Shown: positions 24,791-64,000, numbered from the stretch's first letter. The stretch is 64,000 nt of DNA from Raillietiella orientalis (GCA_036172245.1 JAYWIR010000033.1:496001-560000); one strand, 5' to 3'. Notes: generated from the letters alone by a model not told the origin. A program made the numbers and translations.

Positions 24791-24804
24791 TCGCCGACTC
24801 GGCA

Positions 24805-32380: not shown

Positions 32381-32429
32381 TCGCCAACCCCTCGTTATGT
32401 GTTGAGCCTTCGCCGAAAGTCGGTGTGGG

Positions 32430-34429: not shown

Positions 34430-35324
34430 TTCTCACCCGGTCACGCCGGGGCGTTTATTTCATATAAATACAATAGAAATAAATATATAAAAAAAAACAG
34501 TTAGGGACCACGTTCCCAACCGACGACGGCACAAGTATCAGGAGAATATTGCTGGTACGCAGGCCAGAATTACACAAAACGGTTTGTGGAAACTGAAAAA
34601 ACAAAAACAAATACAAAATAAAAAGAAATTAACGGGGGACGCGGGGCAAGGGTCTTTGGGATCGCTTTGGTTCTCTCCGGTATCATAGTAATGGCACCGG
34701 TATTTTAGCAGAGCGAGCGGGAAAGGGGTATGAATGAGCTTCAGGACGTAGTGGTCACCGGATTGAGCCGTTCCAAAAAGTCTGTAAACCGGCGGTAGAT
34801 GCCGGTAATGTCCTCTTTGACCTCGTAACGAAGATGAGACCACCATGCAGCGTTTTTCATAGATTCTGCTGCAAACCGGTGAGCCTCCCTTCGCTGCGCT
34901 GACAACTCCAGGGCGTAGCGGGCCTTCAAGATGGCGTGAATGCAACACATGGTTGCATCTGTCCGATCACACCGAAATCGTCTTATCGTTGCTCAAAGAG
35001 GTGTAATTGCTAGCGTTGACGCCGCTTTTTCCTGGGAGGAAGAACCCTACGCGCGTGTTTTCCAGTTCATGCAGCTGCTCTTTGCCTTTGAAGAAGAAAC
35101 GAATAGAGGTTGCGAAGCGTTCTCAAGAGATTGTTCTTTTCTCGACTCCACGACCTGCCATTCCTCGTCACGATATTTACGCGCTTCCGCGACTTTCGTC
35201 TCGAAAACCTCCGGAGTTTTCGCTACCGCCTCTAGGGGCGTCGCTTTCGCCACGTTTTAAAAGGACGCAACGGAGTAACCTTCTTGGCAGTCGGGAGATT
35301 GCTCCTCTCCTGCCGAGTCGGTGA

Positions 35325-43900: not shown

Positions 43901-44172
43901 GGAAATCGAGGATGCCTTTCACGGACATTACACGAAACCCTTCAGGCGCCAACAACTCTGTCGCTCTAGTCAACAGGCCTTTTCGAGCTATCTCGAGAAG
44001 AGGACCGACGAACTCCACCGTAACAGACTGAAGGAGGAGTTCTCCGAAAACGAGGTGAAGACTGCTTTTGGACAACTGCGCAAGGATGTGGCGGCGGGCT
44101 CTGACAGTGTACCCATCACGCACTATCAGCGGTACCTGCACGCCTACCTGCGCTTGTTCCACCAGTTGACCC
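37682..44172. repeat. Right arm of the 6.5-kb inverted duplication
   Basis: Reverse complement of 21542..28032. Confidence 0.96.
38208..40769 (+). CDS. Open RT and C-terminal part of family A ORF2 (853 aa)
   Basis: Same RT motifs as 24945..27737, with only a few amino-acid differences. Confidence 0.9.
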   Translation: MKNLKGEVGVLEKRNLATDIFCIQYDGQKPQSSDDIVDVFQRHHTKHFWRQHLCRSSQQAFLSYLEKRTDDLQRKRLEEEFSEDEVKTAFGQLRKDVAAGPNSVPITHFQRYLRLFHQLTLCIREEERLPQFFYESRMRLLPKGGDLTQVAQWRPIPILNSDAKWLAKIWSNRFGKVTSTFISPVQTCAVPGRHMSDNVKCAQATVGLSRYVGENLALVFTDMEKAFDSIDHGMLLMVLEKLGIPEHFSNMVRVVLQNKYCRIKINGQETAAIRMIRGVRQGDSLSPMLFVIYMEALSSFIEKSGRLQAITIDGQGLTHLAYADDLLFFIKGERNQREFLDVVDLMDQGLGLKINAQKSQLLPVGILDLSTLAKRGLRTVDKAKYLGVYIGDVSASKLLWTEILGKTAKEAAKYTRTDLRMKRNANIWNGVLLPKVLFGAAFARMNKETTKEFDKLQRKTLWGHYRPRVRLKPLCRPREEGGSGMKSFAHSIEIVDTRHILDIATHWDDWPYAAHRAYALLLNNSKGLMTALLGRAGEWKKIDPTWTKKQRPVRKHKIKIVPRSRELWQDESILVIPWMLPVPPDTRSWIHQRSRVTLQRIQEWKRGGYLHHTCILRYIEIMFGRLAHMTREVWFNHNDFAWSRVTRTNLRRLIQEEHSEINALQEAAVRYGSDRINLLAIGTSLWRSDLPPGTQDDLLMFYHGGIQSGSLLQHYTGRREDRDCTACGDIDTRLDVLTCPTSLHDWLILKRIIGLTTRSVMEILAGMFQGDGNVPCYNPMVRTTIALFITAILVRWWKMRKARRAAPPMEILQGLLKREIGIRNCGKIQAWTYRFILKRIEDDARNQTAGNPP

Positions 44173-46404
44173 TCTGCATCCGGGAAGAAGGAAGACTACC
44201 TCAGTCCTTCTACGAGAGTCGGATGAGATTGCTGCCGAAAGGAGGCGACTCTACCCAGATCGCCCAATGGAGGCCAATCTCGATCCTAAACTCCGATGCC
44301 AAGTGGTTGGCGAAGATCTGGTCCAACCGCTTAGGCAAGGTCATGTCGAGGCTGATCTCTCCGGTCCAGACATGTGCAGTCCCTGGACGTCACATGTCGG
44401 ACAATGTCAAGTGTGCCCAGGCCACCGTCGGACTCAGTTGAAACGTCCGAGAGAACCCGGCGTTGGGGTTCACTGACATGGAGAATGCTTTCGACTCCAT
44501 CGAACATGGGATGCTGCTGAAGGTTCTCGAGATGTTAGGCCTTCCGGAACACTCCAGCAACTTCGTGAGGGTGGTACTTCAGAACCAGTACTGCCGAATC
44601 AAAATCAACGGCCAGGAGACGGCAGAAATCCGGATGGAACGGGGAGTCCGGCAGGGCGATCCGCAATGTCCGATGAGGTTCGTCATCTACATGGAGACGT
44701 TGTCGTCCTTTATCGAGAAGAGCGGACGACTGCAAGGCATAACAATCGAATGCCAGTGTCTTACCCATCTGGCATACGCTGATGATCTACTCTTCTTTAT
44801 TAAGCGAAAGAGAAATCAACAAGCGTTTCTGGATGTGGTAGACCTGATGGATCAAAGCCTGGTGCTAAAGATCAACGCCCAGAAAAGCCAGCTCTTGCAT
44901 GTTGGAATCCACGATCCCTCCGCTCTTGCGAAGAGAGGATTTTTAATGGTGGACAAGGCCAAGTACCTAGGTGTCTAAATTGGCGGCGTCTCCGCGTAGA
45001 AGCTATTGTGGATCGAGATCCTAGGGAAAACGGCCAAGGAAGCCGCCAAGAACACTTGAATGGACCTCGGAATGCAGCGAAAGGCCAACATATGGAACGG
45101 AGTACTTCTTCCAAAAGTGCTCTTCGGGGCGGCCTCCGCCAGGATGAACAAGGACACCACGAGGGAGTTCGACAAGCTTCGGAGAAAAACACTGTGGGGC
45201 CACTATCGCCCAAGACTCCGACTAAAACTCCTGTGTCGTCCCAGGGAAGAAGGCGGTTTGGGATGAAGTCGCTTGCACACTCCTTATAAATCATGGATAC
45301 GCGTCACATCCTGGACATTGCCACTCCTGCAATCTACACAAGAGTTGGCATCACTGGCTAATGAAGTCATAAAGGTGCAGAGCGGTCCCGAGAAAGAGAA
45401 AATCTTCCAGATGTTCTGCAATGCATAGAAGAAGGTTAATAAGGTTGTGGAGGTCACCGAGCGCGAGAACCTAGAGTAACAGCTTCTCCTAACAACGAAT
45501 CCAAGAGTGGAAACGAGGAGGGTACCTACATCACACTCGTATACTTAGGTATGTAGAAATGATGTAAGGAAGGTTTACCCACATGATCCGTGAGGTGTGG
45601 ATCAATCGCAACGACTTCGCGTGGTCCAGGGTATTCAAAACAAACCTCCAAAGATTAATTCGAGAAGAAGACCGTGACATCAGTGCCCTCCAGGAAGCCG
45701 CCGATCGCTACGGGAGTGACCGGATCAACCTGTTAGCGATTGGCACGTCGCTCTGGAGGAGTGACCTTCCGCCGGGCACCCAGGATGACCTCCTGATGTT
45801 TTATCATGGAGGAATTTAGAGTGGGTCCCGATTGCAGCACTACACCGGAAGAAGGGAAGATCGAGACTGCACAGCATGTGGAGACATCGACACGAGACTT
45901 GACGTCTTGACGTGTCCCACATTGCTGCATGACTGGCTGATCCAGAAAAGGATCATCGGACTTACGAACACATCCGTAATGGAGATCCTCAACGGGATGT
46001 TTCAGGGGGATGGTAATGTTCCCTGATACAATCTTATGGTGAGCACGACCATCGCCTTCTTCATCACCGCCATACTTGTGCAGTGGTGGAAAATGAGGAA
46101 AGCCAGAAGAGCCGCACCACCGATGGAGATCCCACAAGTGCTCCTGAAGAGGAAAATCTGCATTAGATACTGTGGGAAAATCAAAGCCTGGATGTACCGA
46201 TTTATCCTGAAGAGGATAGAAGACGACGCCCGGGACCAAACATCTGGAAACCCACCATTAGTGCAGAACTTGTGAGAACCCAAGGACTTCATAGTGGTAA
46301 AAAAAAGTGCTAATGGTCTGGATGAGATTTAAGTGTGAACGTTTTTATAGAAAAACCTTAAAAAAAAATAAATTTACCGCACCCCTCGTGGGGCTTGGGG
46401 AAAA
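40924..46404 (+). mobile_element. Family A LINE copy 2, head-to-tail after copy 1, defective (ORF1 about 41055-42841, ORF2 42854-46275)
   Basis: ORFs 40949..42421, 42455..42841, 42854..43183, 43197..43784, 44055..44441 and 44463..44978; many stops; same 3' UTR as copy 1. Confidence 0.93.
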
Positions 46405-47767
46405 CTGCCGAGTCGGCGATGGGGCGACTGCATGCAGCGTGCTTTTGCTTGTCGCGACGCTGCTTTTTACGGCTTTCGTAGCCTTTGTCGAGGGGCCGGC
46501 TCTGCAGTAGAGCTGTCCGGAACTCGAATGGGACAACGGAAAGGGGCAAGAAGTCTTCGCACTGTTGCGATCTTCTTGTTTTCCTACCTTTCCCTCCAGG
46601 GTGTCACCGAGATTTCCTGGTTCCTGGCTCGGAGAGGTGCCTGCGAGTTCGGCAGCGAGGGAGGGCACAGCACCCGTCAAACTCTCGCGCCCCTTTTTAA
46701 TTGGCTTCTTCGCCGTGACTTTCCCTTTTCGGGGCGTTGCGGGCGGGGATGCTTTCTTTTCATTCTCGGATCGCTCGTTGTTTTTTCCGATTTTTTGCGG
46801 ACGACGTTTTTTATTTGCCGCTGCGGCTTTTCGTGCAGTGGTCTCTTGAACCCGACGAATTTCCGCTGCGGCTCTTTTTCTTGCAAGTACCGGGTCCTTT
46901 TTGATCTCGTGCCCGGAATTTCTGCAATAGCGGTATCTTGGAGAGGGACACTCTTTAATTCGATGCCCATCCTTGCCGCACTGCTCGCACGCGTGAGTCT
47001 GGCCTATGAACCACAGGTGGACGACCGTGCTGCTTACCTGCAGCTGCTAAGGCACAACACGCCTGTTCCTGACGGTGATCAGCGCGGAGCCTTGTCCGAT
47101 GTGGACAGAGGAGAAATCCTTTAAAGGTTTCGGCCTCCTCCACAGGGCGTGCACGGTGGCGAACTTCGCCAGCACGCTAACAACATCGCGATCGGAGATT
47201 TCCGGTTCGATGTCGCACAACTGAACGACAAAAGAGTCGTCCATCGCGGTAGTTAGGACATCCTCGCCATTGATGGTCAACGGCGTAGGGAGAAGGCGCT
47301 GCACAAGTGCTGCGTCCTTGCACCGAATCTTCGTATATTCCATCCTGCCAGCAGACATTATGGCAAGGTGTTCCTCCTCGCGAACGCCGATCCGGACGAG
47401 CTCATCATTGAGCTCAAGACCGATTCTCCCGTCAAGGGGCCCCCTGAACTTATAACGGAGTGCAGGCATGTATGCTGATGACACATATGCCTGGAACTCC
47501 GCATCGCAGGGTCCTGGTCTTTAAGAGGTAACAGCGGCGTAACTCCTCACCAAGGGCGAGGAAACCATTACGGAGGATGCGGCCACTTCAAGTGCAGCTT
47601 AAGTGCATCCAGTGGCTTGCTTCTCCACACTATCCTGTGTACTGGCCATGTTGCACTATGCTACTTGGCAAATTGCACAGGAACACACAAGTGCGAGCGA
47701 AAACGCAGGCACAAAGTTGCCCGATCGTTGGCCTCGATAGACGCGGAAACACGTCTGCACTGTACGA

Positions 47768-48503
47768 GCGCAAGAGATCAAACGGATCTCGGGTGGGCGG
47801 CTGTTGTGGCGTTGCGGCCCTGCGAAATCAAGCGGTGTTGCCTTCCTGCTTCAGTTAGCCATCGAGACGGCAATTAAGGACGTTCGGTTCGATGACGGAG
47901 GTCGCGTCGGTCGGCTGACTCTCAGCTGTTCCAATTCAATCGACGTGGTCGTCACCAGCCTGTACGCTCCTCTCGGTAAGGATGCGTTGAGGGCGAAGGC
48001 AAGAAGAGAATTCTACCTTGCCCTCGGATGGGATTCGCTTATCGGAGCAGGTGTTCGCAAAGCGCACCTAATTGCAGCTGACTTGACCCTGCGCCTGCTT
48101 CCACGTGCGCCGGATACACTGAACGACCGCGTCAACGAGTTGTGCGCGCAAATGCAAACGTGCAACTTGCTGTCCGGAGATGCGGACATGGAACGGAGCA
48201 TCGATCACGTGTACCTTGACCAGCACCTATGCTCTCAAGTGGGCAGGCTCGGCTAGTTACCGTCCGAGCTGTCGGAGCATGGCCGAATCGTGTTCGAAGT
48301 GCGTCCGCGCGACAAGGGCCCCCCCTCGTCAGCGTGACGTCTGCCCTGGGACTGGCTGAAGTTTCCCGACACTTCGGAACACCTCAGCGTCTTTATTCGG
48401 AGCTTCAGGATGCAGACGCTTCAGGACAGGGACCGCTTGAAGTGGTCGGTCCAGGAGTTCTGCGACCAGTTCCCTCTGCATCGCCTACCTGCGGGATTTA
48501 AGG
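47768..48503 (+). mobile_element. Level-1 host, segment 2: rest of the EN domain
   Basis: Resumes AQEIKRISGGRLLWRCG..GVAFL, then SLYAP and IDHVYL; ends HRLPAGF. Confidence 0.85.
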
Positions 48504-51500
48504 TTGTCACCCGGTTACGCCCGAAGCGCTTATTGAAAAACTCTACATAAACGTAGTACGAGGTCCCAATAACGGCCACACAGCACTGGACCTGCCGGGA
48601 CGCAAGGACGCGGACCGGTGTGACGCTCCTCGGCAGTGGAGGGGGATAGGGATCAAAACAAAAAGAAAAATAAAGATAAGGAAAACAAAAAAAAAGTTTG
48701 GAGGGAGGGGAAGGGATCACAATCCAATGGGAGAGGGGTTCATCCTTAGCAGGATGCCCTCCAGGTCCATCTTCATGCTCCATAGATGGGGCCATCTCGC
48801 AGCTCTCCGCATGAAACAGACCGCATACGGGATGACATCCCTCGCGTTGGCATCCACTCCTTCGTCGCGAATGTCGCTCCAGGCAGCCACGATGCAGCAG
48901 AGGGCTCCGAGTGCTGCGGCGGGCTGCAGGGCGTCCCGCACGAAGAGGGGCCGAAGAACGAATCTGCGCGCGCTGCCCATTGGGAGCCCGAGGGTCGTCC
49001 CGAACCGTTCCCACAGGGGTCGGAAGGCAGCACAGTCAACAAGTAGGTGGGGGAGCGATTCCCGCTCCCTGCACCTGGCACACTCAGGCCTTACACTTCC
49101 CCGCGTCCAGTGAAAGCGGCGCGCGTTCCAGGGTAGACCCCAGTGCAACAGTAGCAGCGCCGACTCTTGCCACTTAATGGGGAGAAGCCTGGATCCGATG
49201 AATATTGGGGGCCACTTCAGGTCATCCGTCGGGATGCCGAGCAGCTCGCCTTATCTACGAAGTCCACGCGGGAGGGCACTCGGGGTTGTGGCATCTGCCA
49301 GTTCTCCCATGGTCCAACCGCTCATCTTCTTTTGCTTGCCTGCTATTAGGCAGGAGACATCTTACCACTTTGGCTCGCGGCCACTGGTTAAAGCCCTTCG
49401 TAGGAAGGGCAGGATCCAGGCTAGAGGGGTAGTTTCCGCCCACATGCTCCTGGCGGGACACTCCAGAGTAGTCCGCAGTGTGCAGCAGGCGTTGGGGCCG
49501 AATCGCAGGCGGTTCCAGTCCGGAGAAGTATGGAGGTTCAGCTTGGCCCACGTCGCCACGGATTCCTCTAGATAGGCGGAGGAGTTGGCGGGGCTGCATA
49601 CCGTCCAGCCGTTGTCTCTCACCAGAGCTTCCATGCTCCCAAGGAGAAGGACGCATCTTCTGACCTTCCTGCCAGAGCACAGTAGGTACGACCCGAGTTT
49701 GTCCAGGACGCAAGGAAGTCCTTGCGTCCTGGACAAACGGCTGGCGAGGATGCGGGCCGTAACGCCCCAAGGGGTGCTCCATGACTTTGCTGCGATGGCG
49801 AGGGTGCGCCATCGCAGCTGTATGTCCAGGCGCTCCAGCTTCAGGAGGCCGAGACCGCCGTCCCGACGAGAAGCGCATCAGTTATCTAGAGGCACACATA
49901 TATTCCCGCTGCCCCAGAGGGCGATGCGGAGTAGGTCCTTTGTCCTCTTTTTAATGTCATGGAAGACGGGGCAAACAAAAAGCAGGGGGCGGAGGATGGG
50001 AGCCGCAAAGGCGTTCCACACCGCGGCCCGTTCCGGCAGAAGGAACTTGCCTTCCAGGAACGGGTCGATTGCCAACTCTACCTTTTGGAGACGACCTGAC
50101 CAGGCTTCTGCGAGGCAGAATTCCCCCAACGGGACACCCTGGTTCTTCAGGTACCTGTCCGCGGGGATCCCCAAGCGGATCCAGTCTGGCCGTCCCGCCT
50201 ACGTCGCACCCACCGGTACGACCGACGACTTCGCCTTGCTTACCCGAAGTCCAGTCCCACGACTTAGCAGATCGAAGAAATCCTCGACTGCGGCTGCCAA
50301 GGCGGACATGGACAACATGAGCAGGAGGTCGTCGGCGTATGCTGTTACGGCGGGCGTGCCGGGGCACGAGCTGGGCAGGGCAGCCAAAGTCACCCTGTAC
50401 GCTCTCACCACCAACTCAAAGTAGGTGCTAAAGAGCAGGCGACTATGGCTATCGCCCTGCCGTATGCTTCGCCGCACCGGCACGCCGTACACCTGTTGCT
50501 GGAAAAGCAGATGTTAACGATGGCGTTGCGCCAGCAGGAGCGCAGGAAGGAGAGAAGAGAGGGAGGGAAGCCCATGCGACCCAGGAGCTTGAACAGTAGC
50601 TCCTGGTCAACGCAGTCGAACGCCTTATGGAGATCGACCTCGATCGCTAGGGCTTCCTCCCCAGCACGGGTGTCCATTCTTAGCCCAGCTGGCGGCCCCA
50701 AAGTGGGGTTTCCAATCTTTCCACCAGTTTCATTCAGGGAGCGCTGCACATGAAACATGTACTCGCGAAGAACAGGTTGGCATCCATACTTCGCCCTGAA
50801 ACAGGGTATGTCTGCTCCGGGCTAATTATGGAGTCTGCCACCTGTCCTAGACGCGAAGCCCACAGTCCAGCGACCAGCTTGGCGTCCGTATTCACAATTG
50901 TGATCGGACTCCAATTTCCTAAGGATCTCAGGTCTCTTCCCTTAGGGAGGAGCCTCACTCGGGCTGACCGACACGAGGCGGGAACGTCTCCTTCGTCTCG
51001 GATCAGCCCGGTCAACTGGATCACCAGGGGGGCCAGCTCTGTAGCGAAGCATTGTAAAAATTTTGCAGGCAGGCCGTCCTCCCTTGGCGCCTTACGCCTC
51101 TTCAGCCTCTTAATACCGGCAAGAATTTCACCGGTAGAAAAAGGCTCGTCGAGGCTGATCCTCTCCTCCTCCCCTATTGCCTGGCCTCCATCCGGAAGCA
51201 GGAGCCGCAAGGCGTCCCGCTCTGGGGGTGCCCTAGCGTAGAGGAAGGAATAATAATGCCGCACGAGGTGCCTGATCGCGGGTGGGGCCGATCGCTCCCG
51301 GCCCTGGTCGTCAAGCAAGCTGGCCGACCCTTGTTGCCAGGCTTGGCGCTCGGCCCAGGCTCGATACTGGGCCAGGCGACGGACATTAGGGGTCCTCTCC
51401 TACCAGCGGGCCTGTAAATAGGCCCTATGGTTTCGAGCCTCCTCCCTAAATCCGGGGGGCAGGCGGTGCAGGGGGAACTCCTTGCAGAACTCGCGGACCG

Positions 51501-54170
51501 AGGCCTTGAAGTGGTCGCAATCTTTGAGACTGCGGAGGGTGACGCCTCTCAGGAATTCGCGAAGGTGTTTCTTCGCACCTGAAAACCGCGTCCAGTCCAT
51601 AGGCAGCCGCCACGCCCTGGACGTAGGTCCTTAATCGCGCGGGAAAACCTCGGCGATTAACCTGGAATGGTCCGACAGCGTCGACGCAACTTTTCCCCGT
51701 TTGCCGACCCACGAGCACAGGTCTACATCCAGGGAGAAGTGGTAGATGCTGCGGTCCATTCCCTTTGCGTCCACCAACAAGTTGCGCGTGCGCATAGCAG
51801 CGCACAACTCGTTGGCCGTGCGTTCTTGTGCTTCGGGCTTACCTGACAGCAGACGGAGATTAAAGTCCCCAGCTATCAGGTGTGCCTTCCGCACGTTCGT
51901 ATCGGCCAGCCAGTCGCCCTTCAGGGTTTCCAGCAACCTGGTACGGTCGCTGTATCCCCCTTTCCCGCATAAGGCGTACACGTTCGTGACGATCAATTCG
52001 ATAGAATCGGACCAGCTGAGAGTCAGCTGACCGACTTGACCGTCGTCATCGAAGCGTACGCCCTTAACGGCAGCGTCGATGGCCGGCTTCACGAAAAACG
52101 CGACTCCACAGGTGTTGCGGGCGCCGCATTGCCAATACAGTCGACCCCCTGCGATCGTCTCGATCTCCTGGACGTCTGCCGAGGCTATCACTTGATCTCC
52201 TGCAGCAGGGCCAGGTCGAACTCACGCAGGGTGTCGGCCGTATCTCGTCTGTTACCGTCGTCGCGCAGCTCGTTGGCGTTCTAACTGGCCACGCGGATTC
52301 CACGGCGACAGGCGAGCCCAGATGTTACTCCTGGGGAATCGGCTCTGCGGCGTCCGCCACCTGTTAAGGCGGGACGCTAGGTGGAGCAGGAGGGACAGGT
52401 GCCTCGAGCACCTGGTCCCCCTGCTCCATCGGTGACGGCGCGTCGGGCGGGTCATCCTCCGGTAGGGTCGCGCCTACCTGTTGGCCCTCCTCCATAAGTG
52501 TGGGCTGTACAGGGTCCGCGCTGGCAAGAAGGACTTCGCCTCCCTGCTCTCCCTCCTCCATGGGGGTGGCCTGCTCGACGACTTCCGCGCGTGGGATTTC
52601 CCCCTCCGGGATTCCCACGCTGCCGTCGGCTTCCTGCTTCTCCTCTTCGCTCGTGGAGCGGAGGCGCCTCCTCGGCTATCGGGACTTGCGTCCCGTCTAC
52701 CGGGGGGTGCCTCCGACGACGAGGATGCACTTGCGGCCCTCAGATCGCACTCACCTGCGGGGGCCTTCTTCGGCGGAGCCGGCCTTCGCACGGCCTTGCG
52801 TGAGGGTTTCTCACGCTCGGCCAGCGTGGCCGGGAGCTCCTCCGTCGCCTGCGCGAACGCGGCGTCCTCGCTTTAGGCGCGCGCTTCGCGCTGCTCACCC
52901 TCTGTGCAAACAGAGGGTTCGTCGTCGCGAACTTCGGGCGCGGCGGAAACGGCGAGGGGAGGCTCGTCGCCCCGGGTGGCAGCCTCGGGGACGGCAATCC
53001 GTTCGAGTGACACCGTGCACTCGCAAAGAGTTTTCGAGCGCGGACCGGGTTAATTCGTTCTTGCGCTCTTTTCTTTCTTCGCTCTCGTGGGTTCCACGGG
53101 GGGAACTTTTTTCTCTTTTCTGGCCTTTACCAGCTTCCATCCTTCTTCCTCTCCCGCGTCTTCAGCGGGTTTTTCCTCCGACGCCTGGGTGGAAGGAACA
53201 GGAGATGGCGGCTGGGGCCGGCTAGTTTCGCGATAAGCTCTTTCGATCTTTTTTCCTTTTTCAGGCTGTGCCTTTTTGGCAGCAGGTAACACCGGGGTAG
53301 GGCGTTTGGGGCACACTCGACGAACGCGTCCCTTAACCCCGCACAAGTGGCACTCTATATTCGGGCGCCGCTTGCGCAAGTGCCCTACTGCATCGCATTA
53401 GCCACAATAGCGGGGTTTCCCCACGTACGAGAGGCCGACGGATTCCTTTGCGATCTCCAGTTTCTGGGGCAAGCTACTGCCCTCATTTACCGTTACACGC
53501 GCTGCAGCCTGGCCTCTGAAATGGCTATTAAAGCCTTCGAAAATGGTAGCCTTTGGCCACAACGCGTGTATCTCACCGTATTCGCTCAATTCATTACTCA
53601 CCGCAGATCGCGTCATTCGGTTCGTAATGCCGGTTAGATGGACCACTACGGAGCGGTCCATGCTAACCGGCAGGATCTTCCGGCCATCCACATTCAGCGG
53701 GGTGTTAATGAGGCGCTCTGCTAAGGCTACGTCTTTGCAGACGACCTCCACGCGCTGCCCCCGCTGAGTACGGAGAGGCCGTCAAGATCCTCCTCTCGTA
53801 CAGGGAAATCCTGCAGTGCCCTACTAAATGCCCGGGTGGTGCGACCATCAAACAGGGGTCCTACCATATAAACCAGAGATGGTTTATATCCGGAGGCCCT
53901 GTAGGCCGCTTGCTCTGCCAAGGTTTCCGCACTCGGCAAGGAAATCATGGCGCTCCACGTCCTCGGCGTTGCCGGGGATGATTCCGGGGTGGACGCCTCA
54001 GATTCAGCAGGCTGTGAAGGTGGGCAAGCCTCCCCCACACCTACCTCCATCGTGGTGTCCTCAGGCGTCGCTACCATCGGACACCAACGATGTTCCACAC
54101 GAACACACACAAAGAAAAATCCGCTTCCTGTGGACTCGCTCGGAAGCTCAGGAAAAACACGTCCGCTCGT
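48504..54170 (-). mobile_element. Level-2 full-length (about 5.7 kb) family B LINE, defective; best reference copy of the family
   Basis: 5' motif at 54164; ORF1 pieces 53727..54173 through 52364..52618; EN 51631..52191; RT 50734..51318, 50405..50758 and 50199..50492 (YADD); CARC..HLLVDC in 48717..49148; terminal motif at 48504-48534. Confidence 0.92.
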
Positions 54171-54757
54171 CAAGGGATTCGAAGAGAGGCCGCGTAACGA
54201 AAGGTGCTATCTTCAGGCCCGACGTTACGCGAGAATCCCCGACATGAGCAATTTAGCGAAATACCGAGCAAGAGCCGAGAGGCAAGCCTGGTAATCAGGG
54301 TCGGCAAGCTTCTTGGACGACCAGGGCCGGGAGCACTTGGTTCCCGCTCAAAAACGCGTAATAATGGAGAAATTTTACTCCTCCCTGTACTCCAGGGAGC
54401 CTCCGGAGAAGGATGTCTTACGACTTTTGCTTCCGGAAGGTGCTTTAGCGATCGGGGAGGAGGAGAAAAGGAACCTCGACAAGACTTTCACGATGGGCGA
54501 GATCATCTCGGCCATCGGAAAGCTCAAGAGGGGAAAGGCTCCAGGGGAGGACGGCCTGCCTGCGGAGTTTTATCAAACTATCGCGGCAGAGCTTACTCGC
54601 CTGGTACATCAGCTCACCTTGCTGATCCGCGAAACAGATGACGTTCTCACCACGTTTCGTTCAGCAAAGGTGCGTCTCCTCCTTAGAGGAGGAGACCTTA
54701 GGAGCATGAACAACTGACGTCCCATCACAATAGTGAATGCGGACGCTAAGTTCCTAG
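54171..54757 (+). mobile_element. Level-1 host, segment 3: ORF2 linker up to RT DAK
   Basis: Resumes KGFEERPRNERCYLQARR, includes KAPGEDGLPAEFY, ends IVNADAKFL. Confidence 0.87.
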
Positions 54758-56837
54758 TTGCCACCCGGTCACGCCGGGGCGTTTATTACAAATTCTCTAT
54801 GATTCGTGGTACGAGGTCCAACTACGGCCAACTCAACTGGACCTGCCGGGTCGCCGGTACGCAGACCGGAGCGACTCTCCTCGGCAGCAAAAGGAGGTGG
54901 GAGAAAAAACCAAAAAAAAATAAAACATAAAAAACAAAAAGATTTGGGGGGGTTAGGGAGGGATCACTGATCACTGGGAGGAAGGTCCATACTTTGCAGG
55001 ATGCCCTCGATGTCCGTCCGTATGCTTCTAAGGTGGGGCCATCCGGTCGCAATCCGCAGGTAGCGGACAGCAAGTACGACGGCATCCCTGTCGTGACTCG
55101 GTCTTCTGAAGTTGTTGCAGCTGGTCACAATCCCGCGTATGCAGCAAAGTGCAGCCAGGGTAGCGGCTGGACGCAGGGCATCCTGCACGAACAGAAGCCG
55201 AAAAATGGCTTTGGGCTGGCTGCTCTCCTGGATCCGTAGGGAGGCACGAAGACGCTCCCACAGGGGTCGGAGGGCAGCACAATAAACAGGGAGGTGGAAG
55301 AGGGTTTCCCGTTCCCCAGACCTGATGCAGGTAGGATCTACACGACCGTTGGTTCAGTGGTGGCGGTGTGCGTTGCAGGGAAGACCTTGATGCAACAACA
55401 GAAGCGCCGACTCCTGCCGCTTCAGGGGGAGGACCCTAGAACCAATTCATACCGGGGGCCACTTCAGGTCATCCGGCTGGATGCCGAGTAGCTCGCCCCA
55501 TCTCTGAAGTCCTCTCGGCTGGACACTGGGAGTAGTAGAGTCCGCCAGTTACCCCGTGGACCAGCCGCTTATCAACTTCTTCTTGCCTGCGATATGGCAG
55601 GAGACGTGACACCTAGGCTTGCGGCTGCAGGAGAGCGCCCTTCTCAGGAAAAGCATCGCTGTAGCTAGAAGGGTTGTCTCTGCCCACGTGCTTCTCGCGG
55701 GACACTGGAGTATCTTCTGTAGAGTGCAGCAGGAATAGGCGCCGCGTCGCAGGCAGCTCCACATCTCTCCGTTTTTCTGGTATATCTTCGCCCACGTGCC
55801 AGCTGTCTCCTCCAGCCATGCTGAGAAGTTGGCGGAACTGCATACCATCCAGCCGTTTTCCTTAGCCAGAGTTGCCATGCGTCCCACGAGAAGTCCACAT
55901 CTCTTGATCTTCCTGCTACGGCACAGAAGATCAGACGCAAGACCCTCGGTCCCGGATACACGGCTGGCAAGGAGTCGGGCCGAAACGCAACAAGGGGTGC
56001 TCCATAACTTCGCTGCGATAGCAAGGGTTTGCCACCGCATCTGAATCTCTACTCGCTTCATCGTCAAGAGGCCGAAACGCCATCTCGACGTGGAGTACAC
56101 ATGTCCTTCAACGGGACACAAGGCCTCCCTCTTCCCCAAAGGGCAATTCTGAGGAGGTTTTTCGTCCGTTTTTTCAACTCTCTGGGGACGGAGCGAACAA
56201 AAGCCGGGGGCGGAGGAAAGGAGCCGCGAACGCGTTCTGTACCGTGGCATGTTCCGGAAAGAGAAATTTGCCTTCCAGGAACGGGCCGATCGCCGTTCCC
56301 ACTTTTTGGAGGCAGCCAGACCACGCTTCCGCAGGGGAGTAGTCCCTCAACGGCACACCAAGGTTCTTCAAGCACCTTGCCGTGGGGATCCCCAAGCGGA
56401 CCCAGTCCTGCTGCCCAGCCCACGTAGCACAGTCGGGAACCACCGTCGACTTAGCCTTGTTCACCGATAGTCCGGCTAAGCAGATCGAAAAAATCCCCGA
56501 CCGCCTTTGCAAGGGTTTACATCGGCAACAGAAGCGAAAGATCGTCGGCGTACGCTGCTATGGTGGGCGTGCCGGTGCACGAGCTTAACTTGGGGGCTAA
56601 AGTCACCCTGTACGCTTTTAGCACCAACTCAAAGTAGGTGCTAGAGAGCAGGGGACTGAGGCTGTAGCCCTGCCGTATGCCCCGCCGTACCGGCACGCCG
56701 TACGCCATTCGACCTCTGGAAAAGATATTGATCAGCGCGCTGAGGAAGCAAGAGAGCGGGTAGGCCGATAGGAAGGGCAGGAATCCTATGCGTCCCAGGA
56801 GCCTCGGTGGGAGATCCTGGTCGACGCAGTCGGACGC

Positions 56838-58389
56838 TCGATGCGTCGGCCCGTTCCGAGGCGGCAGGTTTTTCCTGCCTGAACGGGCCGCGGTTTAAAC
56901 ACGTTCGCGGCTCCTCTCCTCCTCCCCCTGCTTTCTGTTTGACCCCCCAAAGAGAGAATTAAAAAACGGACAAAGGACCTCATCCGTATCTCCCTTTCGA
57001 GCAACGGGAGGGCCCTAGTCAGTTAAAAGCACTTGTGCGCTCCTCGTCGGGACGGTGGTCTAGGCCTCCTGACGCTGGAGCGGCTGGAGCTTCAGCTCCA
57101 GTTCCGCTTGTCGGCACTCGTTCCAGAGTTGTGGTGCACCTGTTGGTGCGTCCCTGCACGTCTCCTTCTCCAGCAAGCCATTGGCAAGACGGGACTGACG
57201 TCGTTTCTTGCACTCCGTCGCCGCGTCAACCGATGCGGACTCCAGCTACGGAGGGTGCCTGCGCTGTATCGGAAAAACCCAGGATTGGTCACCTTTCGCC
57301 CTTTGAACGGTAGTGCCTGGTTGCAGAAAACCGTTCGAACGTGGAAACAGTTCGGCATGCAACGCTCTTAACAGGAACGAAGGTACCTGTTTGGGGGTTA
57401 CGAAAGTTGCAAGCTCCGCGAGATCCTGGGTGATCCAAAGAAGAGAGCGTTGGCAGGAACAACCCCCCTCGCTGCTGCGCTGCCCTCCCTGATGGAAGAT
57501 CTTAACAGCGATGTGGCGGCGAAGTGGTAGGTCACAGTAACAATCTTCGGGAAAGAGAAGAAGATAGGATAGTGGAAGACGGGTCAGCTGACTGACGCTG
57601 CCTTTCCGAGTACGACTCTCCATGGACTTCTACGCTGAATTGCGCTGCTCCACGTTCCCATTGAACGTTTGAAGTGGCCCCGGTACTTATTAACACCTCC
57701 ACCCTCCTTTTAAAATGGCAGGAGTCGTCTCTCCTGTTGCAGTACTGGGGACTCCCCTGCAACGCTCGCCGACACCACTGGACCTGGGGAGCGGTGGACC
57801 CCAATTGCGTCAGGTGTAGGGAAGGGGAGTCCCTCCGCCACCTGCTAGTGGATTCTGTTGCCCTTCGGCCCCTTTGGTTTTGCTTTGCCGCGGTCATCGG
57901 AGTCCCCTGTGTCAACCTCAGGGACGTACTGAAAGCTCTCTTCGTTGCCGACGCCATTTGGCCAGCGACCTCGTTAGCAGCCCTGTGATGCCATCGCTGG
58001 ATCGTCGCCGCCTGGAATAAGGCTACGGAAGGACCACACGAGCAGGGTGCCATCCAGTCAGCTTCCCAGTTCCTAAGGAGTGCGTCCCGATTGCCCCACT
58101 TGGTTCCAGGAATACAGAAAGGAGCTTGCCGGCATCCTTTAAAGGATGCAACGGCCCCACCAGCAACTGTGATCCCTTCCCTTACCCTACCAACTTTTCT
58201 TTTCATTGTTGTTTTGTTTTTTGTTTTTTCTTCTTCTTCCTGCTGCCGTGATGGATTGTACCGGTCTGCGAACCGGTGACCAGGCAGGCTCTGTGTTTGT
58301 TCGTGCGTGGCTGTAGCAATGGTTTATCCACTGCACGTCTTTGTGAATGTTTATTAAACAATAAACGCCTCGGCGAAATCCGGGTGAAA
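56838..58389 (+). mobile_element. Level-3 5'-truncated family B copy inserted at RT KAFD|
   Basis: PRRDGGLG and CVRC..HLLVD motifs; terminal AATAAACGCCTCGGCGAAATCCGGGTGAAA; host reads DLRKAFD on one side and ASDCVDQDL on the other. Confidence 0.83.
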
Positions 58390-58999
58390 ATCGAACGCCT
58401 TGCGAAGATCGACTGCGACCGCTAAGGCACTTGGCGCTTTCTCAGGCTGAATGCTGCGACATTTAGCTTTGGCAGCCGCAGTTGCGGTTGCCTGGCTTTC
58501 GTGCGCCACGCAATGTTGCAGCTCGACCCACGTGCGCGCCAAAAACAAGTTCGCCTTCATGGTCCGCCCGGGAAGAGCGTATGACTGCTCCGGATTTACC
58601 AAGAATCCAGCGATCCTGCCTAGGAGCGCGACCCAGAGCCTGGAGAACAACTTGACGTCCGCATACACCAAAGTGATCGGACGGCAGTTGCTTAAACGAG
58701 GCATGTCTCCGCCTTTCGGCAAGAGACGCACCCTTGCTGAGCGAAACGAGGCTGGGACATTGCTCGTCTCTCGCATCAGCGCAGAAACTCTTAGCATCAG
58801 GGGGATGAGTTCCGCCGCGAAGCACTGAAAGAACTCCGCAGTCAGACCATTCTCACCTGGAGCCTTGCGCTTCTTGAGGCCCGCTATGGCGGAAGACACT
58901 TCTTCCGCCGTAAAGGGCAAGTCAAGAGAGGCGCGTTCCTCCTCATCGACCGCAGGGGAATCCTCCGGCAGAAGCAGCTCCGAGAGCGAACCTAAGGAC

Positions 59000-60157
59000 A
59001 TTTACCGTCTCCGCTTTCTGAGTGACGGCCTGCACCCAGCTGCGTCTATAGCAGTCCTCTGCTACGTGCGCGGCATTGTGCAAAGGTGGCACGAAGAAGC
59101 AGAGGTTTAAGATGCAGGAACGCCATCCACTGGACGACGATCTCTTTGGAGACGGCGGAAAGGTGGCGTCTACCTTTCACAATAAAAACCGAACTTGACT
59201 GCATCCTCAACAGGATGCGAAGGACCGAACCAGGCGCACAGTGATACCTCTCCTACCCCCCATCTCTTCATAGAACAGTTTCCTTCCTTGTTATTTCCTT
59301 TTTTGTTTTTTGTTTTCCTTTTCCAGTTCCGCAGCGCCTGGATAGGGAACCTTGCCGGTCTAAAGACCGAGTAGCGAGTACATTGTAACGTTGGAGAACC
59401 CAGTGTTATCCTACAGAAAACATTTTTTAAAGACTTTATTATCTAATTTTGGTAACAAATTAGATTAATGAATGCCCCGGCATATCCGGGTGACAAACGG
59501 AGGACGCACTTGTTGTTCGCTCCGTGGATAGGGAGTTTTTTGACTGGTGTTTCGTGTGTGTTTCGCGGCCGTTGACAGGCAGAAATGCCTGTGAACGCCG
59601 CAGTTTCAGGTGAGGGAGGCGGGAAGATCGCGTCTCCCAAGCCAAAGGAGGTGGGATTACGCCCCACCACTACTTCGGCACCTTTCCCCGCCACTACGGC
59701 GAAGGCATGGAGCGCGGTGGCTGCGGTGCAAACTCCCGATGTCGCCCCCGAAATACAATCCTACATCGGGGAGGGCTACAATCCGGCCCTCCTGTACAAG
59801 GTAGGAAATTTATATTCCCCGCGACATTTCTGCAATGCCATCAAAAAGATGGAAATTCCCAACCATGAAATTATTTGCCTCTCAATATGGAGCGGAGGGC
59901 AGTTGGCGGAGCTCATCTGCAAGGATGCTGCTCTTACCCACAAGATGCTCTGCACGCTCGTACAATTTGAGTTGAGGAATTTACTCCCACACACTGTGGA
60001 CCACTCCATTGTGGTCCACCGAACAGGGACAACAGTGCGGATGGATGAGAACGCCATCCGCGCTGAACTGGAAAAATTCGCAAGCGTTTTCGCGATGTGG
60101 AGAAAGCCCAACACCTTCGGAGTGAATGGTGCATTTAGTGGGCGAGTAGGCGCGCGG
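59000..60157 (+). mobile_element. Level-3 head-to-tail junction fragment: family B 3' end (to 59496) plus next element's 5' UTR and ORF1
   Basis: GCCCCGGCATATCCGGGTGACAA then GGACGCACTTG; ORF 59585..60160 resembles the ORF1 at 5.3-6.2 kb. Confidence 0.8.
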
Positions 60158-60749
60158 TAAATGTACTGGGGCTTGCCCACGTTCCAGACGTCGACGGTCT
60201 CGTTGCCGACGTCTAGTTTGTGGGGTAGCCCACTGTTTTCGTGGACGGTTACACGCGCACCAGCCATGCCACTAAACAGTCTTCCGGAACTGTGGAAGAC
60301 AATGGGCTTGGTCCATAGCGCGTAAACCGTTCCGTATTTTCCGAGTTCCTCCTGCACGTCGGCTTTCGACATGCGGAGGGTGACTCCAGTGACCAGCGTC
60401 ACCACGGAGCGATCCTCCGTTACCAAGAAAACCTTTCGGCCTTCCAGTGTGATTGGCGTATTCAGGAGGTGTTGAGCAAGGCTTGCATTTCTGCAAGTCA
60501 GCTCCACCCGCTGACCACCACTCAACACGGAAAGACCTTACAGGTCTTCCTCTTTTACGTTCAACCGCTGCAACTCCCTTTCGAAGTTGCGAGCGGTGTT
60601 CCCCACAAACAGATTGCCTACCTTGTATATCAGGGACGGCTTGTATCCCTGCTCCAGGAAGGCTTTCTGCTCGGCGAGGGCTGCAGGAGATGGGGCTGCA
60701 GCCACTGAACTCTAGGTCTTCGGCGATGCCGAAGACGCATTCGAGGGTG

Positions 60750-60880
60750 CAAATGCCCCCTTTTTCAAGGAGGCGGTTGCGCCCTGTTCCAGCGGGGCTT
60801 TTGCCCCCTTTTTCATGGGGGGCTTTGCCCTTGCTTCCGAGGCGGTGCTTGCCCCCTTTTTCAGGGGTGCGGCTGCCGTC
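60750..60880. repeat. 48-bp period degenerate tandem repeat in ORF1 N-terminus
   Basis: GCCCCCTTTTTCA-like unit three times; encodes PLKKGA, PMKKGA and SLKKGA on the minus strand. Confidence 0.8.
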
Positions 60881-61069
60881 GCCTCCGTGGGGGCGGTTAC
60901 CTTCACCTCCGTGGGTTGGGGAGAGGAGCAAGCCTCTCCCCCTCCTATATCCATCGCGGTGTCCTCAGGCATTTCTGCCATTGGACACCGCAGATGCTTT
61001 ACACACAAACACAATCGAAATCAACCGCTTTACACCAGGCGCGGAAGAGCGCTACAAAAACACGTCCGC

Positions 61070-63422
61070 ACGCCAAGTTGATAGCAGGGCTATGGGCTTC
61101 GCGTCTGGGGCAGGTGGCAGAATCCATAATTAGCCCGGAGCAGACTTACGCTGTTTCCGGGCGAAGTACGGATGCCAACCTCTTCTTTGCGAGCACATGG
61201 ATGCACGTGCAGAGGTGTCAAAAGGAAGGGAAAGGAAAAATCGGCAACCATACTTTGGGGCCGTAAGCAGGACAGGGAATACAATCAAGGGCGGGGTAGG
61301 GGGCCTTAGCGCTCGCAGTCGATCTCTATAAGGCGTTCGAGTGTGTTGACGAGGAGCCTTTGTTGGAGCTCCTGGGTCGCATGGGCTTCCCAACCTCCCT
61401 ACTGACCTACCTGCGCTCTTGCTGGCGCAGCGCGCTGATCAATATCTCTTTCAGAGGACAAATAGCGTACTGCGTGCCGGTACGGCGGAAAATACGGCAG
61501 GGCGACAGCCTCAGTCCCCTGCTCTTTAGCACCTACTTTGAGTTGGTGCTGAGAGCGTATAGGGTGACGTTGGCCCCCTTGCCGAGCTCGTGCCCCTGCA
61601 CGCCCGCCGTAGCAGCGTACGCCGACGATCTTCTGCTCTTGTTGCCGATGTCCACACCGGCAAAGGCAGTCGACGATTTCTTCGACCTGCTTAACCGCGG
61701 AACCGGACTGTAGGTTAACAAGAAGAAGTCGTCGGTGGTGCCAGTCGGTGCGACGTGGACTGGGCAGCAGGACTGGGTCCGTTTGGGAATCCCCTCGGCG
61801 AGGTGCTTGAAGTACCTCGATGTGCTGTTGGGGGATTACTCCCCTTCGGATGCGTGGTTCGGCAGCCTCCAAAAAGTGGAAACGGCAATCGGCCCGTTCT
61901 TGGAAGACAAGTTCCTGATTCCGGAACGGGCCGCGGTGTCGAACTCCTTTGCGGCTTCCATCCTCCGCCCCCTATTTTTTGTTTGCTCCGTCCTCAGAGA
62001 CATGAAAAAAAGAACGAAGAACCTCCTGAGGATTGCACTTTGGGGAAGAGGGAGGCCTCGAGTCCAGTTGAAGGACTTGTGTGCTCCACGACGGGATACC
62101 GGTCTGGGCCTCTTGACGGTGGAGAGAGTAGAAATCCAGCTGCGATGGCGCACCCTGGCCATCGCAGCGAAGTTATGGAGCACCCCATGGTGCGTTCCGG
62201 CCCGACTCCTTGCCAGCCGTGTATCCGGAACGGAGGGTCTCGCGTCTCATCTTCTGTGCCGCGGCTCGAAGATCAAGAGATGCGGACTCCTCCTGGGACG
62301 CATGGCAACCCTGGCAAAGGAAAACGGCTGGGTGGAATGCAGCCCCGCCAACTCCTCCGCATGGCTGGAGGAGACCGCTGGCACGTGGAGGAAGATAAAC
62401 CAGAAGAACGGAGAGATATGGAAGTGCCTGCGACGCGGCGGCTATTCCCGCTGCACTCTGCGCAAGATACTCCAGTGTCCCGCTAGAAGCACGTGGGCAG
62501 AGACAACCCCCCTAGCTACGGCGATGCCCTTCCTGAGGAAAGCGCTCTCCAGCAGCCGCAAGCCTAGGTGCCAAGTCTCCTGCCATATCGCAGGCAAGGA
62601 GAAGTTGATAAGCGGCTGGTCCACGGGGTGACTGGCGGACGCCACTTCTCCCAGTGTCCAGCCGAGAGGACATCAGAGATGGGGCGAGCTACTCGGCATC
62701 CAGCCGGATGACCTGAAGTGTCCCCCGGTATGAATTGGTTCTAGGGTCCAACCCCTGAAGTGGCAGGAGTCGGCGCTTCTGTTGTTGCATTGGGGTCTAC
62801 CCTGCAACGCACGCCGCCACCACTGGACCCGGGGTCGAGTAGATCCTACCTGCATCAGGTGTGGGGAACGGAAAACTCTCCCCCACCTCCTTGTTGATTG
62901 TGCTGCCCTCCGACCCCTGTGGGAACGTCTTCGTGCCTCCCTACGGATCCAGGAGGGCAGCCAGCGCAGAGACGTTTTTCGGCTTCTGTTCGTGCATGAT
63001 GCGCTGCGTCCAGCCGCTACCCTGGCTGCACTTTGCTGTGTACGCGGGATTGTGACGTGCTGGAGCAACGTCGGAAGACCGAGCCACGACAGGGATGCCG
63101 TCGTACTTGCAGTTCGCTACCTGCGGATTGTGACCATATGGCCCCACCTGGGAATTATACGGACGCACCTTGAAGGCATCCTGCGAAGGATGGACCCTCC
63201 TCCCAGTGGTCAGTGATCCCTCCCCAACCCTCCCAAATCTTTTTATTTTTATGTTTTGTTTTTCTTTTTGTTTTTTCCACCACCCCCTTCCGCTGCCGAG
63301 GAGAGTCGCGCCGGTCTGCGTACCGGCGACCCGGCAGGTCCAGTTGAGTTGGCCGTAGTGGGGCCTCGTATCACGAATCAAAGGGAATTTTTAATAAACG
63401 CCCCGGCGTGACCAAGTGGCAA
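61070..63422 (+). mobile_element. Level-1 host, segment 4: RT 3' half, C-terminal CCHC motif, 3' UTR, terminal motif
   Basis: Resumes AKLIAGLWASRLG; ORFs 61360..61713 (RQGDSLSP, YADD), 61735..62631 and 62782..63216 (CIRC..HLLVDC). Confidence 0.9.
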
Positions 63423-64000
63423 CTAGTAACTTGGCGTTCGTATTCACGATCGTGATCCGACGCCAGTTCTTCAAATCTCTGAGGTCTCCCCTTTTCGGAA
63501 GACGCCTCACTCCCGCTGACCGAAACGAGGCGGGAACCTCGCCTTCGTCTCGTATCATCCTTGTCATCTGAAGCAGCAGGGGTGCCAGCTCTTCCGCGAA
63601 GCTCTGATAGAACTCCGCGAGCAAGCCGACTTTCTTAGGAGCTTTCCGCCTCTTGAGCCTTTTGATACCTAAGAGAATTTCGCCGGTGGTAAAAGGCTCC
63701 TCGAAGCTATTGCCGCGGCACCATCCGGAAGCAAGAGCCGAGAAGCATCTTGATCAGGGGGCGCCCTGGCGTAAAGGGAGGAATAATAACTCCGCACGAG
63801 ATGCCGTACCGACGCCGGGGACGAACACTCCCTGCCCTGATCGTCCAGCAAGCAGGCCGACCCGGATTGCCAGGCTTGACGTTCGGCCCCGGCGCGGTAC
63901 TCGGCCAGGCGACGGACATTAGGGGTTCGCTCGTACCTACGGACCTGTGAATAGACCCCATAATTGCGAGGACCCTCGACGAATCCGGGGGGCAAGCGGT
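63423..64000 (-). mobile_element. Level-0 outer family B host, ORF2 linker up to RT NAK; continues beyond the window
   Basis: ORFs 63669..63995 and 63391..63624: YYSSLYA, AEFYQ, WRRITIVNTNAKLL. Confidence 0.87.

Follow-up and report, generated by a model that had tools for sequence, protein, structure and literature searches.

Long interspersed elements (LINEs) that integrate at defined sequences serve as models for how a mobile element finds a safe place, and they are under development as tools for gene insertion. The classical site-specific LINEs (R1, R2, TRAS, SART) use one nick position and a fixed orientation in a multicopy target that serves as a safe haven, and their 3′ junction is defined and independent of poly(A). 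To our knowledge, all well-studied target-specific LINEs aim at host repeats, i.e., ribosomal DNA (rDNA), telomeres, or small RNA genes. The Tx1L LINEs of Xenopus insert at a fixed site in the Tx1D DNA transposon. [quoted passage not shown] It contains decayed LINEs, called family B throughout, which are interrupted by further copies at conserved motifs of their own coding sequence. The results suggest that a LINE lineage aims at the coding sequence of its own kin. The counts given below stem from this one 64-kb window, with two events per recurrent site.

Elements that enter other elements have been described before. In the accessible passages of Cosby et al. (2019; PMC6719617) it is stated that Tx1 non-LTR elements target Tx1d transposons and that Tourist inserts in Tourist. 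The elements of the window resemble the Tx1 group in that L1/Tx1-like LINEs, here with a weak match to an APE-type endonuclease, choose a particular sequence within a further mobile element that is present in many copies; matches to CCHC knuckles in open reading frame (ORF) 1 and, below the cut-off, to a C-terminal zinc motif in ORF2 were also seen. In contrast to the Tx1 group, the target is the coding sequence of the LINE family itself, namely motifs of the reverse transcriptase (RT) and of the endonuclease, and the inserts are always antisense to it. Because the family of the window has several tail types, each with its own site, recursive nesting is possible, unlike in the Tx1 group.

A second comparison concerns Zepp and the Zepp-like L1 LINEs of green algae (Chlorella, Coccomyxa, Chlamydomonas centromeres), which, according to excerpts of Craig et al. 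(PMC8226300), target their own copies and form nested clusters that are tandem arrays mostly of 3′ ends; excerpts of Blanc et al. (2012; PMC3446292) describe one nested Zepp cluster per chromosome. As far as these excerpts go, the window shares with Zepp that new copies enter existing copies of the family and that nested clusters arise, both of which were found. It differs in that the inserts are antisense and often 5′-complete, that coding motifs are reused with nucleotide precision, and that duplications of 11–13 bp are present. Tandem arrays of 3′ ends of the Zepp type are not formed by family B: its inserts are antisense and three of them are 5′-complete, and head-to-tail units were found only in a second family (family A) and at the 5′ end of one family-B element (fragment M, see below). 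With R1, R2, TRAS, and SART the elements of the window have in common one nick position, a fixed orientation, a multicopy target, and a defined 3′ junction, whereas the targets of the former are host rDNA, telomeric repeats, and genes for small nuclear RNA (snRNA), and the window elements hit their own family. The specificity seen in the window comes from 2 + 2 events, as opposed to hundreds of copies or biochemistry. A full-text literature search, the original Zepp papers excepted, yielded no LINE at a fixed codon of the RT of its own family. Self-nesting and element-targeting LINEs are thus known, and the nucleotide-exact antisense reuse of own ORF2 motifs, with different sublineages at different motifs, was not found in the literature searched (with the same exception), which does not prove that it has never been described.

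Two Independent Insertions at One Nucleotide of the D-A-K Motif

At two loci family-B host sequence that ends with ...AAGTTNCTAG, within the D-A-K motif of its RT, adjoins the natural 3′ end of a family-B element (...CCGGGTGGCAA). The junctions are located at 54757|54758 and 63423|63422. On the plus strand GCTAAGTTCCTAG (54745-54757) is followed by TTGCCACCCGGTCACGCCGGGGCG, and on the minus strand GCCAAGTTACTAG (63435-63423) is followed by TTGCCACTTGGTCACGCCGGGGCG. In both host frames, ...ITIVNADAKFL| and ...ITIVNTNAKLL|, the break comes after the first base of the codon that lies two codons beyond the K of D-A-K. Beyond both breaks the reverse complement of the family tail follows, which represents a natural 3′ terminus; the tail type in question, called I-type, is ...GTGACCGGGTGGCAA. 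A preliminary description of the window had claimed that the two junctions fall at the same nucleotide, and both strings were found at their positions. The observation at the D-A-K site was therefore confirmed.

The two loci form an inverted pair (arms 54476-56078 and 62102-63704) and align without a gap over the junction. When 54162-57000 was aligned with the reverse complement of 61156-64000, the identity in windows of 100 columns was 58–72% on the host side and 84–94% on the insert side, the latter up to 56746/61424. For 300 nucleotides (nt) per side of the junction, the hosts were identical at 203/298 positions (68%) and the inserts at 265/299 (89%; Fisher p = 8e-10), and for 100 nt per side the values were 72/99 (73%) and 92/100 (p = 4e-4). 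The step in identity that the preliminary description had proposed to look for is thus located at the junction, and uniform identity across it was not seen. The step, together with the topology of the locus, in which the host segment of the first junction (54170-54757) belongs to the element that ends at 63422, shows that the junctions go back to two separate insertions that struck one nucleotide independently.

Three other origins of the junctions were considered and rejected on the basis of their geometry and the identity step, i.e., a simple palindrome, a 3′ transduction of host flank, and twin priming. Twin priming places an inverted 5′ segment beside the 3′ segment of the same copy, with the tail at the flank, and this geometry differs from that of the window junctions.

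Architecture of the Nest

The element that connects the two junctions, JHI, is encoded on the plus strand and is split into four pieces (32427-34429, 47766-48503, 54170-54757, and 61072-63422). After removal of one copy of each duplication, the pieces sum up to 5647 nt, compared to 5666 nt for copy C, which is uninterrupted from the 5′ motif to the tail and was used as empty-site reference for mapping pieces and edges. Three inserts, all on the minus strand, separate the pieces, namely K, C, and EI. There are at least three levels of nesting: a host represented by H2 and probably by L1 contains JHI, JHI contains K, C, and EI, and EI contains a further insert, F.

The first piece of JHI (32427-34429) comprises the complete 5′ terminus (GTGGACGTGTTTTT), ORF1, and the beginning of the endonuclease, and is broken at ...GCACAGGAGAT|. 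The second piece (47766-48503) encompasses the endonuclease domain and the linker and is broken at ...GGGATTTAAGG|. It is followed by C (48504-54169, minus strand), a full-length inverted insert of 5666 nt in the JHI linker, which is itself uninterrupted at the D-A-K, endonuclease, and K-A-F-D sites. The third piece (54170-54757), the first host segment of the preliminary description, comprises the linker and the N-terminus of the RT up to the D-A-K nick. The fourth piece (I2, 61072-63422) extends to the natural 3′ tail in the D-A-K site of H2. When the gap edges were aligned to C, a short duplication was found at every joint of JHI. The duplication at the D-A-K site is a clean one of 13 nt, with GCTAAGTTCCTAG as left copy (54745-54757) and GCCAAGTTGATAG as right copy (61072-61084), which are alike at 10/13 positions. 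The duplication at the endonuclease site is about 11 nt long (GCACAGGAGAT and GCGCAAGAGAT; 34419-34429 and 47768-47778; 9/11 alike), and so is that in the linker (GGGATTTAAGG and GGGATTCGAAG; 48493-48503 and 54174-54184; 8/11 alike).

The element ending at 63422 is therefore both an insert at the D-A-K site of another copy and a host at its own D-A-K site, as had been claimed. The nesting at two levels at the same site is real, because JHI has an inverted, 5′-complete insert with a 13-nt duplication at its own D-A-K motif. The bounds originally given for the two inserts (54758-56790 and 61370-63422) hold for the well-aligned part, and homology and duplications extend the pieces to 56845 and back to 61072, respectively.

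The outermost host is represented on the right by H2 (63423-64000, minus strand), the 5′ part of a family-B element that runs off the window. It ends at the D-A-K nick (...AACGCCAAGTTACTAG|) and corresponds to positions 2694-3283 of C with 74% identity. On the left, piece L1 (31137-32184, minus strand) is an RT fragment that starts at the K codon of D-A-K, on the side that is expected to carry the duplication. In tblastn it starts at residue 249 of the family-A RT, and the piece at 61072 starts at residue 248. Piece L1 is the probable 3′ continuation of H2; the link rests on geometry, because the duplication is poor (about 6/10). The interval between piece L1 and JHI (32185-32426, plus strand) consists of M, a 3′ untranslated region (UTR)/tail fragment of an upstream unit (32185-32378, 194 nt), and a 48-nt spacer, and is located directly before the 5′ end of JHI. 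This arrangement suggests that M and the 48 nt arrived together with JHI, on a transcript that had begun in an upstream unit of a tandem source and read through.

The inner insert at the D-A-K site of JHI is EI (54758-61071, minus strand). Its 3′ part, I1 (54758-56845), extends from about the K-A-F-D motif to the natural 3′ tail at 54758. It is followed by F (56846-58389, plus strand), a 5′-truncated inverted insert in the K-A-F-D motif of EI, the tail of which (...CCGGGTGAAAA) ends at 58389 and the host edges of which overlap by 8–14 nt. The 5′ part of EI, E (58390-61071), contains the N-terminus of the RT (58390 to about 58950) with an intact D-A-K motif, and the 5′ UTR and the start of ORF1 (60163-61071) with a full 5′ end, GCGGACGTGTTTTT at 61056-61069. 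This part is rearranged and contains two plus-strand fragments, R (about 58952-59107) and Q (59576-60157). R is similar to the C-terminal part of ORF2 and the following Q to 5′ UTR/ORF1, which resembles another tail-to-head junction of units.

The identity of JHI and EI is 68–69% upstream of K-A-F-D, rises to 83% in the RT core, and reaches 90% over the final 700 nt. I1 and I2 are the sole family-B pair at 83–90%, the other pairs being 62–78% alike. This fits either a recombinant (mosaic) element with a switch at the conserved motif or a gene conversion in which the inverted repeats, separated by 4.5 kb, took part. Identity stops sharply at the tail, and therefore conversion is unlikely to be the whole story. 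The proposal that the two inserts represent one subfamily is therefore not secure, as the identity of 83–90% is confined to the part downstream of about K-A-F-D.

A Second Recurrent Site in the Endonuclease Region

The insert between the first two pieces of JHI, K (34430-47765, minus strand), is inverted and resides in the endonuclease-coding region. Its 3′ tail is at 34430 (...CCGGGTGAGAA), its 5′ end is at about 47760, and a CCHC-containing ORF1 is located at 46345-47046. K is split by a tandem array of family A on the plus strand (about 35316-46424). The tail of K adjoins JHI after ...GCACAGGAGAT, 30 nt past the motif LLQEIH. A second 3′ end of this type, K′ (3888-4290, plus strand), is 403 nt long and 79% identical to K, and its tail, which also reads ...CCGGGTGAGAA, ends at 4290. 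It adjoins another family-B element, host2 (4291-6801, minus strand), which is broken after ...GCGCAGGAGAC| (4290|4291), at the same nucleotide of the endonuclease region as JHI.

The K and K′ loci align without a gap across the junction. For 300 nt per side, identity amounts to 64% between the hosts and to 80% between the inserts (p = 2e-5), and in the first 100 nt per side there is no step (72% vs. 75%). We take K and K′ to be two events, because K is 5′-complete and has a duplication, while K′ is a 403-nt stub in different surroundings. This parallel pair at one nucleotide of the endonuclease region makes site choice, and not luck, the likely cause of the coincidences. The K type is probably a short, non-autonomous rider. 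The K sequence proper (34430-35235 and 46425-47765) has a family-B 5′ end and the terminal tail, a CCHC ORF1-like frame, and a non-RT frame ending with ...KEDITGIYRRFTDF. The ORF1 region of host2 contains a 42-nt tandem repeat (6024-6126, 2.5 copies, 93% matches).

The joints have features of ordinary L1-in-L1 nesting, i.e., products of target-primed reverse transcription inside older LINEs, 5′ truncation (F, K′), and duplications of 10–20 bp. Ordinary nesting, in contrast, does not reuse one nucleotide.

Site Usage and Comparison of Occupied and Empty Sites

Six insertions into the ORF2 or linker of family-B elements were identified: JHI into H2, EI into JHI, K into JHI, K′ into host2, C into JHI, and F into EI. 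They occupy four sites, two of which were used twice. The pairs that coincide in position are those that agree in tail type. In the window both I-type tails (2/2) are found at D-A-K and both K-type tails (2/2) at the endonuclease site, in each case at the same nucleotide and in the same orientation. All six insertions are antisense to the host, the chance of which is 0.016. With a uniform choice over 5650 nt, double hits at two different sites would have a probability of about 1.4e-6, and the pattern becomes likely only with roughly 20–50 or fewer usable positions per element.

The D-A-K site could be compared in five family-B copies (G, C, JHI, EI, H2/L1). The two occupied sites read GCYAAGTT(C/A)CTAG, and the three empty ones GCCAAGCTGGTCG (C) and GTCAAGTTGTTCT (EI, G). 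CTAG at the nick is thus common to the occupied sites and absent in the three empty family-B copies. Family A reads GCCAAGTGGTTGG at this site, and within the window the exact 13-mer is confined to the three copies of the duplication. It had been proposed that the subfamily targets its own RT sequence and thereby inactivates itself. Nesting at two levels at the same site was found, but the targets are any family copies with GCYAAGTTNNTAG and not demonstrably the own RT as such; the sequence of EI differs there and is unoccupied. Self-inactivation follows from the nesting, and a function of it was not demonstrated.

Two further candidate hits were not counted. A third hit of the linker site in a deleted element (at 29956) was rejected, as the homology continues for about 30 nt past the nick. 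A family-A-like RT copy at the left end (8-1441, minus strand) loses homology about 2–3 nt past the D-A-K nick position; it was left out because its neighbor is not an I-type tail and the nest at 1-7400 is tangled. A scan of metagenomes for the tail motif CGGCGTGACCGGGTGRNAA yielded 72 loci, none of which (0/72) had the context AATAAACGCC upstream. To judge from their mostly GC-rich, bacterial-looking sequence, we read these 72 loci as chance matches.

Classification and Termini of the Elements

Family A has intact frames for an ORF2 of 938 amino acids (aa; RVT_1, E = 1.4e-30) and an ORF1 of 496 aa with a CCHC knuckle (zf-CCHC, 25.5 bits), which passes the cut-off, while the zf-CCHC match of the K ORF1 is below it (17.7 bits). 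Family B, to which the nested elements belong, is decayed and follows the same plan. Its ORF1 resembles that of family A and its RT is recognizable (RVT_1, E = 2.7e-10 on the piece 61300-61713). The matches to an APE endonuclease are weak (Exo_endo_phos, 8.1e-4 and 19.6 bits in family A, 7.9e-3 and 16.4 bits in copy C, Pfam cut-off 24.5 bits), and the LLQEIH and GDFN-type motifs were recognized by eye. A zf-RVT match near the C-terminus of family B (62734-63216) is weak as well (E = 0.0099, 17 bits vs. a cut-off of 27.5). The closest solved protein is human L1 ORF2p (1.7e-37), ahead of R2 (2.5e-24). A search of a large protein database with the intact family-A ORF2 revealed no close kin (best 27–30% identity, no clade names), and an Atlas search returned only generic RT clusters. 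Going by these similarities, we call the elements L1/Tx1-like non-LTR retrotransposons, with no finer placement.

Family-B elements have no poly(A) and end in a conserved 3′ tail of roughly 30 nt, AATAAACGCCCCGGCGTGACCGGGTG(R)(N)AA. An 18-nt tail motif is present four times in the window with up to three mismatches (34430, 48504, 54758, 63405) vs. 0.05 expected, and the copies at 34430 and 48504 lie in contexts other than D-A-K. The tail can form a weak 5-bp hairpin (ACGCC/GGCGT, -2.6 kcal/mol, one pair covarying), from which no structural claim is made. Full-length copies start with (G/C)NGCGGACGTGTTTTT. The 5′ motif GCGGACGTGTTTTT is present exactly at 54153-54166 and 61056-61069 and with one mismatch at 32429-32442; in total there are four matches vs. 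0.69 expected, of which that at 58541 is probably due to chance. The 5′ terminus of the family is found on the inserts K, C, and EI, in K in a variant form.

Proposed Mechanism and Alternatives

The exact junctions, the constant orientation, the natural 3′ and 5′ termini, the duplications, and the independence of the events call for an explanation of how the sites are chosen. We infer sequence-specific recognition through the machinery of the element, with the endonuclease or the ORF2 protein as the favored agent, in analogy to other target-specific APE LINEs, and the 3′ flank of the RNA as the alternative. The reading that we prefer, and regard as rather probable, is that L1/Tx1-like LINEs have a strong, orientation-fixed preference for conserved coding motifs of sister copies. 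Judged by their structure, the joints are those of target-primed reverse transcription with staggered nicks, by which new copies are inserted into older members of the family. In the mechanism proposed here, a nick would be set in the coding strand of the target behind ...GCYAAGTTNCTAG, within the N-x-D-A-K motif of its RT, and the freed 3′ hydroxyl group would prime cDNA synthesis from the tail of the incoming RNA. As the coding-strand 3′ end primes from the incoming tail, the new copy would always be antisense to its host. The 13-bp duplication would result from a second nick, set 13 nt upstream in the opposite strand. In this way, JHI would have entered H2 at D-A-K, and later EI would have struck the D-A-K copy of JHI itself. 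Other tail types would use other conserved coding sites, i.e., the K type the endonuclease region 30 nt after LLQEIH, F the K-A-F-D motif, and C the linker.

Several observations weigh against this preferred reading. Despite the shared terminal tail, C and F each use a site that was seen once, and two diverged tails (N at 29578 and S at about 29224) lie in low-GC DNA without a recognizable LINE. The duplication of the outer event (H2/L1) is poor (about 6/10), and the duplications, with 9 mismatches in about 38 positions, seem more diverged than I1 and I2 (11%). The high identity of I1 and I2 begins at a distance of 50–90 nt to F and increases in the direction of the 3′ end, and their close likeness could partly be due to gene conversion and not to shared descent as a subfamily. 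No endonuclease domain was found in EI, and no endonuclease or RT was seen in K, which is split by the family-A array, so that a loss is possible. Because EI shows no endonuclease domain at present and K seemingly lacks ORF2, the choice of site cannot be attributed to the inserts' own endonuclease; the site goes with the 3′ module and not with the 5′ half. Pairing between tail and target did not exceed that of shuffled sequences (last 150 nt of six tails, both strands, 40 shuffles each); one of the 12 comparisons of RNA-target duplex energies had z = -2.3, and the rest ranged from -1.4 to +1.7.

A more far-reaching version is advanced with considerable reserve, as a possibility that we would not bet on. 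It states that each LINE sublineage might be set, via its 3′ 2 kb (the C-terminal part of ORF2, or the 3′ RNA or its flank), to home antisense into a different ORF2 motif (the endonuclease after LLQEIH, D-A-K, K-A-F-D), and that the K-type riders would use the same system. This would be a hyperparasitism of LINEs on LINEs.

The alternative that survives best, although we consider it unlikely, is a guidance by the flank of the RNA. A master copy resident at D-A-K would be transcribed past its tail into the antisense host, and the extra RNA (CUAGNAACUUNGC...) would anneal to other D-A-K copies and set the primer at the junction, so that the site would be inherited from the location of the master. 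In R2, analogously, downstream 28S sequence positions the primer. Such a guidance would account for the association of tail type and site (I-type tails at D-A-K, K-type tails at the endonuclease site), and for the precise sites of K and EI, which apparently have no endonuclease or ORF2 of their own. Three of the four sites fall into those motifs that are conserved best in the family, so that diverged copies would still anneal there, and the last 100 nt of the hosts are 72–73% alike vs. 64–68% further out. The upstream read-through of JHI (M and 48 nt) would imply that long tandem or nested transcripts are copied. On the other hand, the last 34 nt of the host sequences before the D-A-K junction contain 6 differences, so that a transduced flank cannot be seen, and a nick at the same base would still be required. 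No complementarity was found within the last 150 nt of the elements, a test that does not address read-through RNA.

It is still less likely that there is no targeting, and that LINEs with a loose nick preference pile up in a tolerant, repeat-rich region, the coincidences being hot spots of DNA shape or luck. The window is nearly all LINE from 21.5 kb on, so that nested hits are expected, and the four sites have no obvious long motif in common. With about 10–20 nickable places, the probability of two doubly hit sites in six events would be 0.09–0.28. Yet 20 or fewer usable positions in 5.6 kb already amount to a strong site selection, exact nucleotides were reused twice and each time by the same tail type, all six insertions are antisense, and CTAG at the nick characterizes the occupied D-A-K sites and is missing from the three empty family-B copies.

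Very improbable is one insertion event with a later duplication and inversion of its product, or a copied junction followed by gene conversion that homogenized the insert arms: the loci do form an inverted repeat 4.5–6 kb apart that is gap-free across the junction, the same window has a 99% identical inverted duplication of family-A arrays, and I1 and I2 are the sole family-B pair at 83–90% (others 62–78%), but a single insertion predicts uniform identity and is largely refuted by the step that was found, from 73 to 92% in adjacent 100-nt blocks, where a conversion tract would have had no reason to stop because the flanks are homologous. Moreover, the host segment at the first junction continues collinearly into the insert at the second and completes it to full length, so that the junctions belong to different nesting levels and are not arms of a palindrome. 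The right break at 61072 and the left one have 13 nt in common, as is typical of an insertion.

If the preferred reading, a preference of these LINEs for conserved coding motifs of sister copies with different sublineages at different motifs, were true, site specificity could evolve quickly and repeatedly within one family, and LINEs could compete through mutual inactivation. Islands of nested LINEs, which act as centromeres in some algae, could then arise by exact homing and not only by regional preference. The window would also offer a natural set of close relatives with different targets, with which the target-setting part, protein or RNA, could be mapped. If hyperparasitism were true as well, the elements would gain a safe haven, disable competitors and kin, and build nests like Russian dolls. 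The interest is real if a genome-wide census bears the finding out, and until then it is unproven.

Other Features of the Window

Family A forms two head-to-tail arrays (21543-28032, minus strand, and 35316-46424, plus strand), in which the tail of one unit (...TGCCGAGTCGGCGA) directly adjoins the 5′ end of the next (TTAATCAG...). The arrays are inverted copies of each other with 99% identity over 4919 nt, and the plus-strand array lies antisense inside K. The pair could be either a recent inverted duplication or a fold-back of the assembly. Family A looks recently active.

The region 7000-21500 has a low GC content (38–47% vs. 52–61% elsewhere), and 11 frames of at least 110 aa in it had no Pfam match. 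The two diverged tails mentioned above (...GAGCAAAAA, plus strand, 29224, and ...GTGCAAAAA, minus strand, 29578) face each other over 353 nt of low-GC DNA, and the minus-strand tail belongs to an internally deleted element (29578-30606) in which the RT is missing entirely. The left end of the window (1-7400) is a further tangle of elements, including a family-A-like RT. A perfect 34-nt palindrome (CGCTTTCCCAGCCGTGATCACGGCTGGGAAAGCG, 1476-1509) is located there between the family-A-like RT fragment (8-1441, minus strand) and the endonuclease start of element G (plus strand), and it is flanked on both sides by more hairpin-forming stretches (about 1447-1530).

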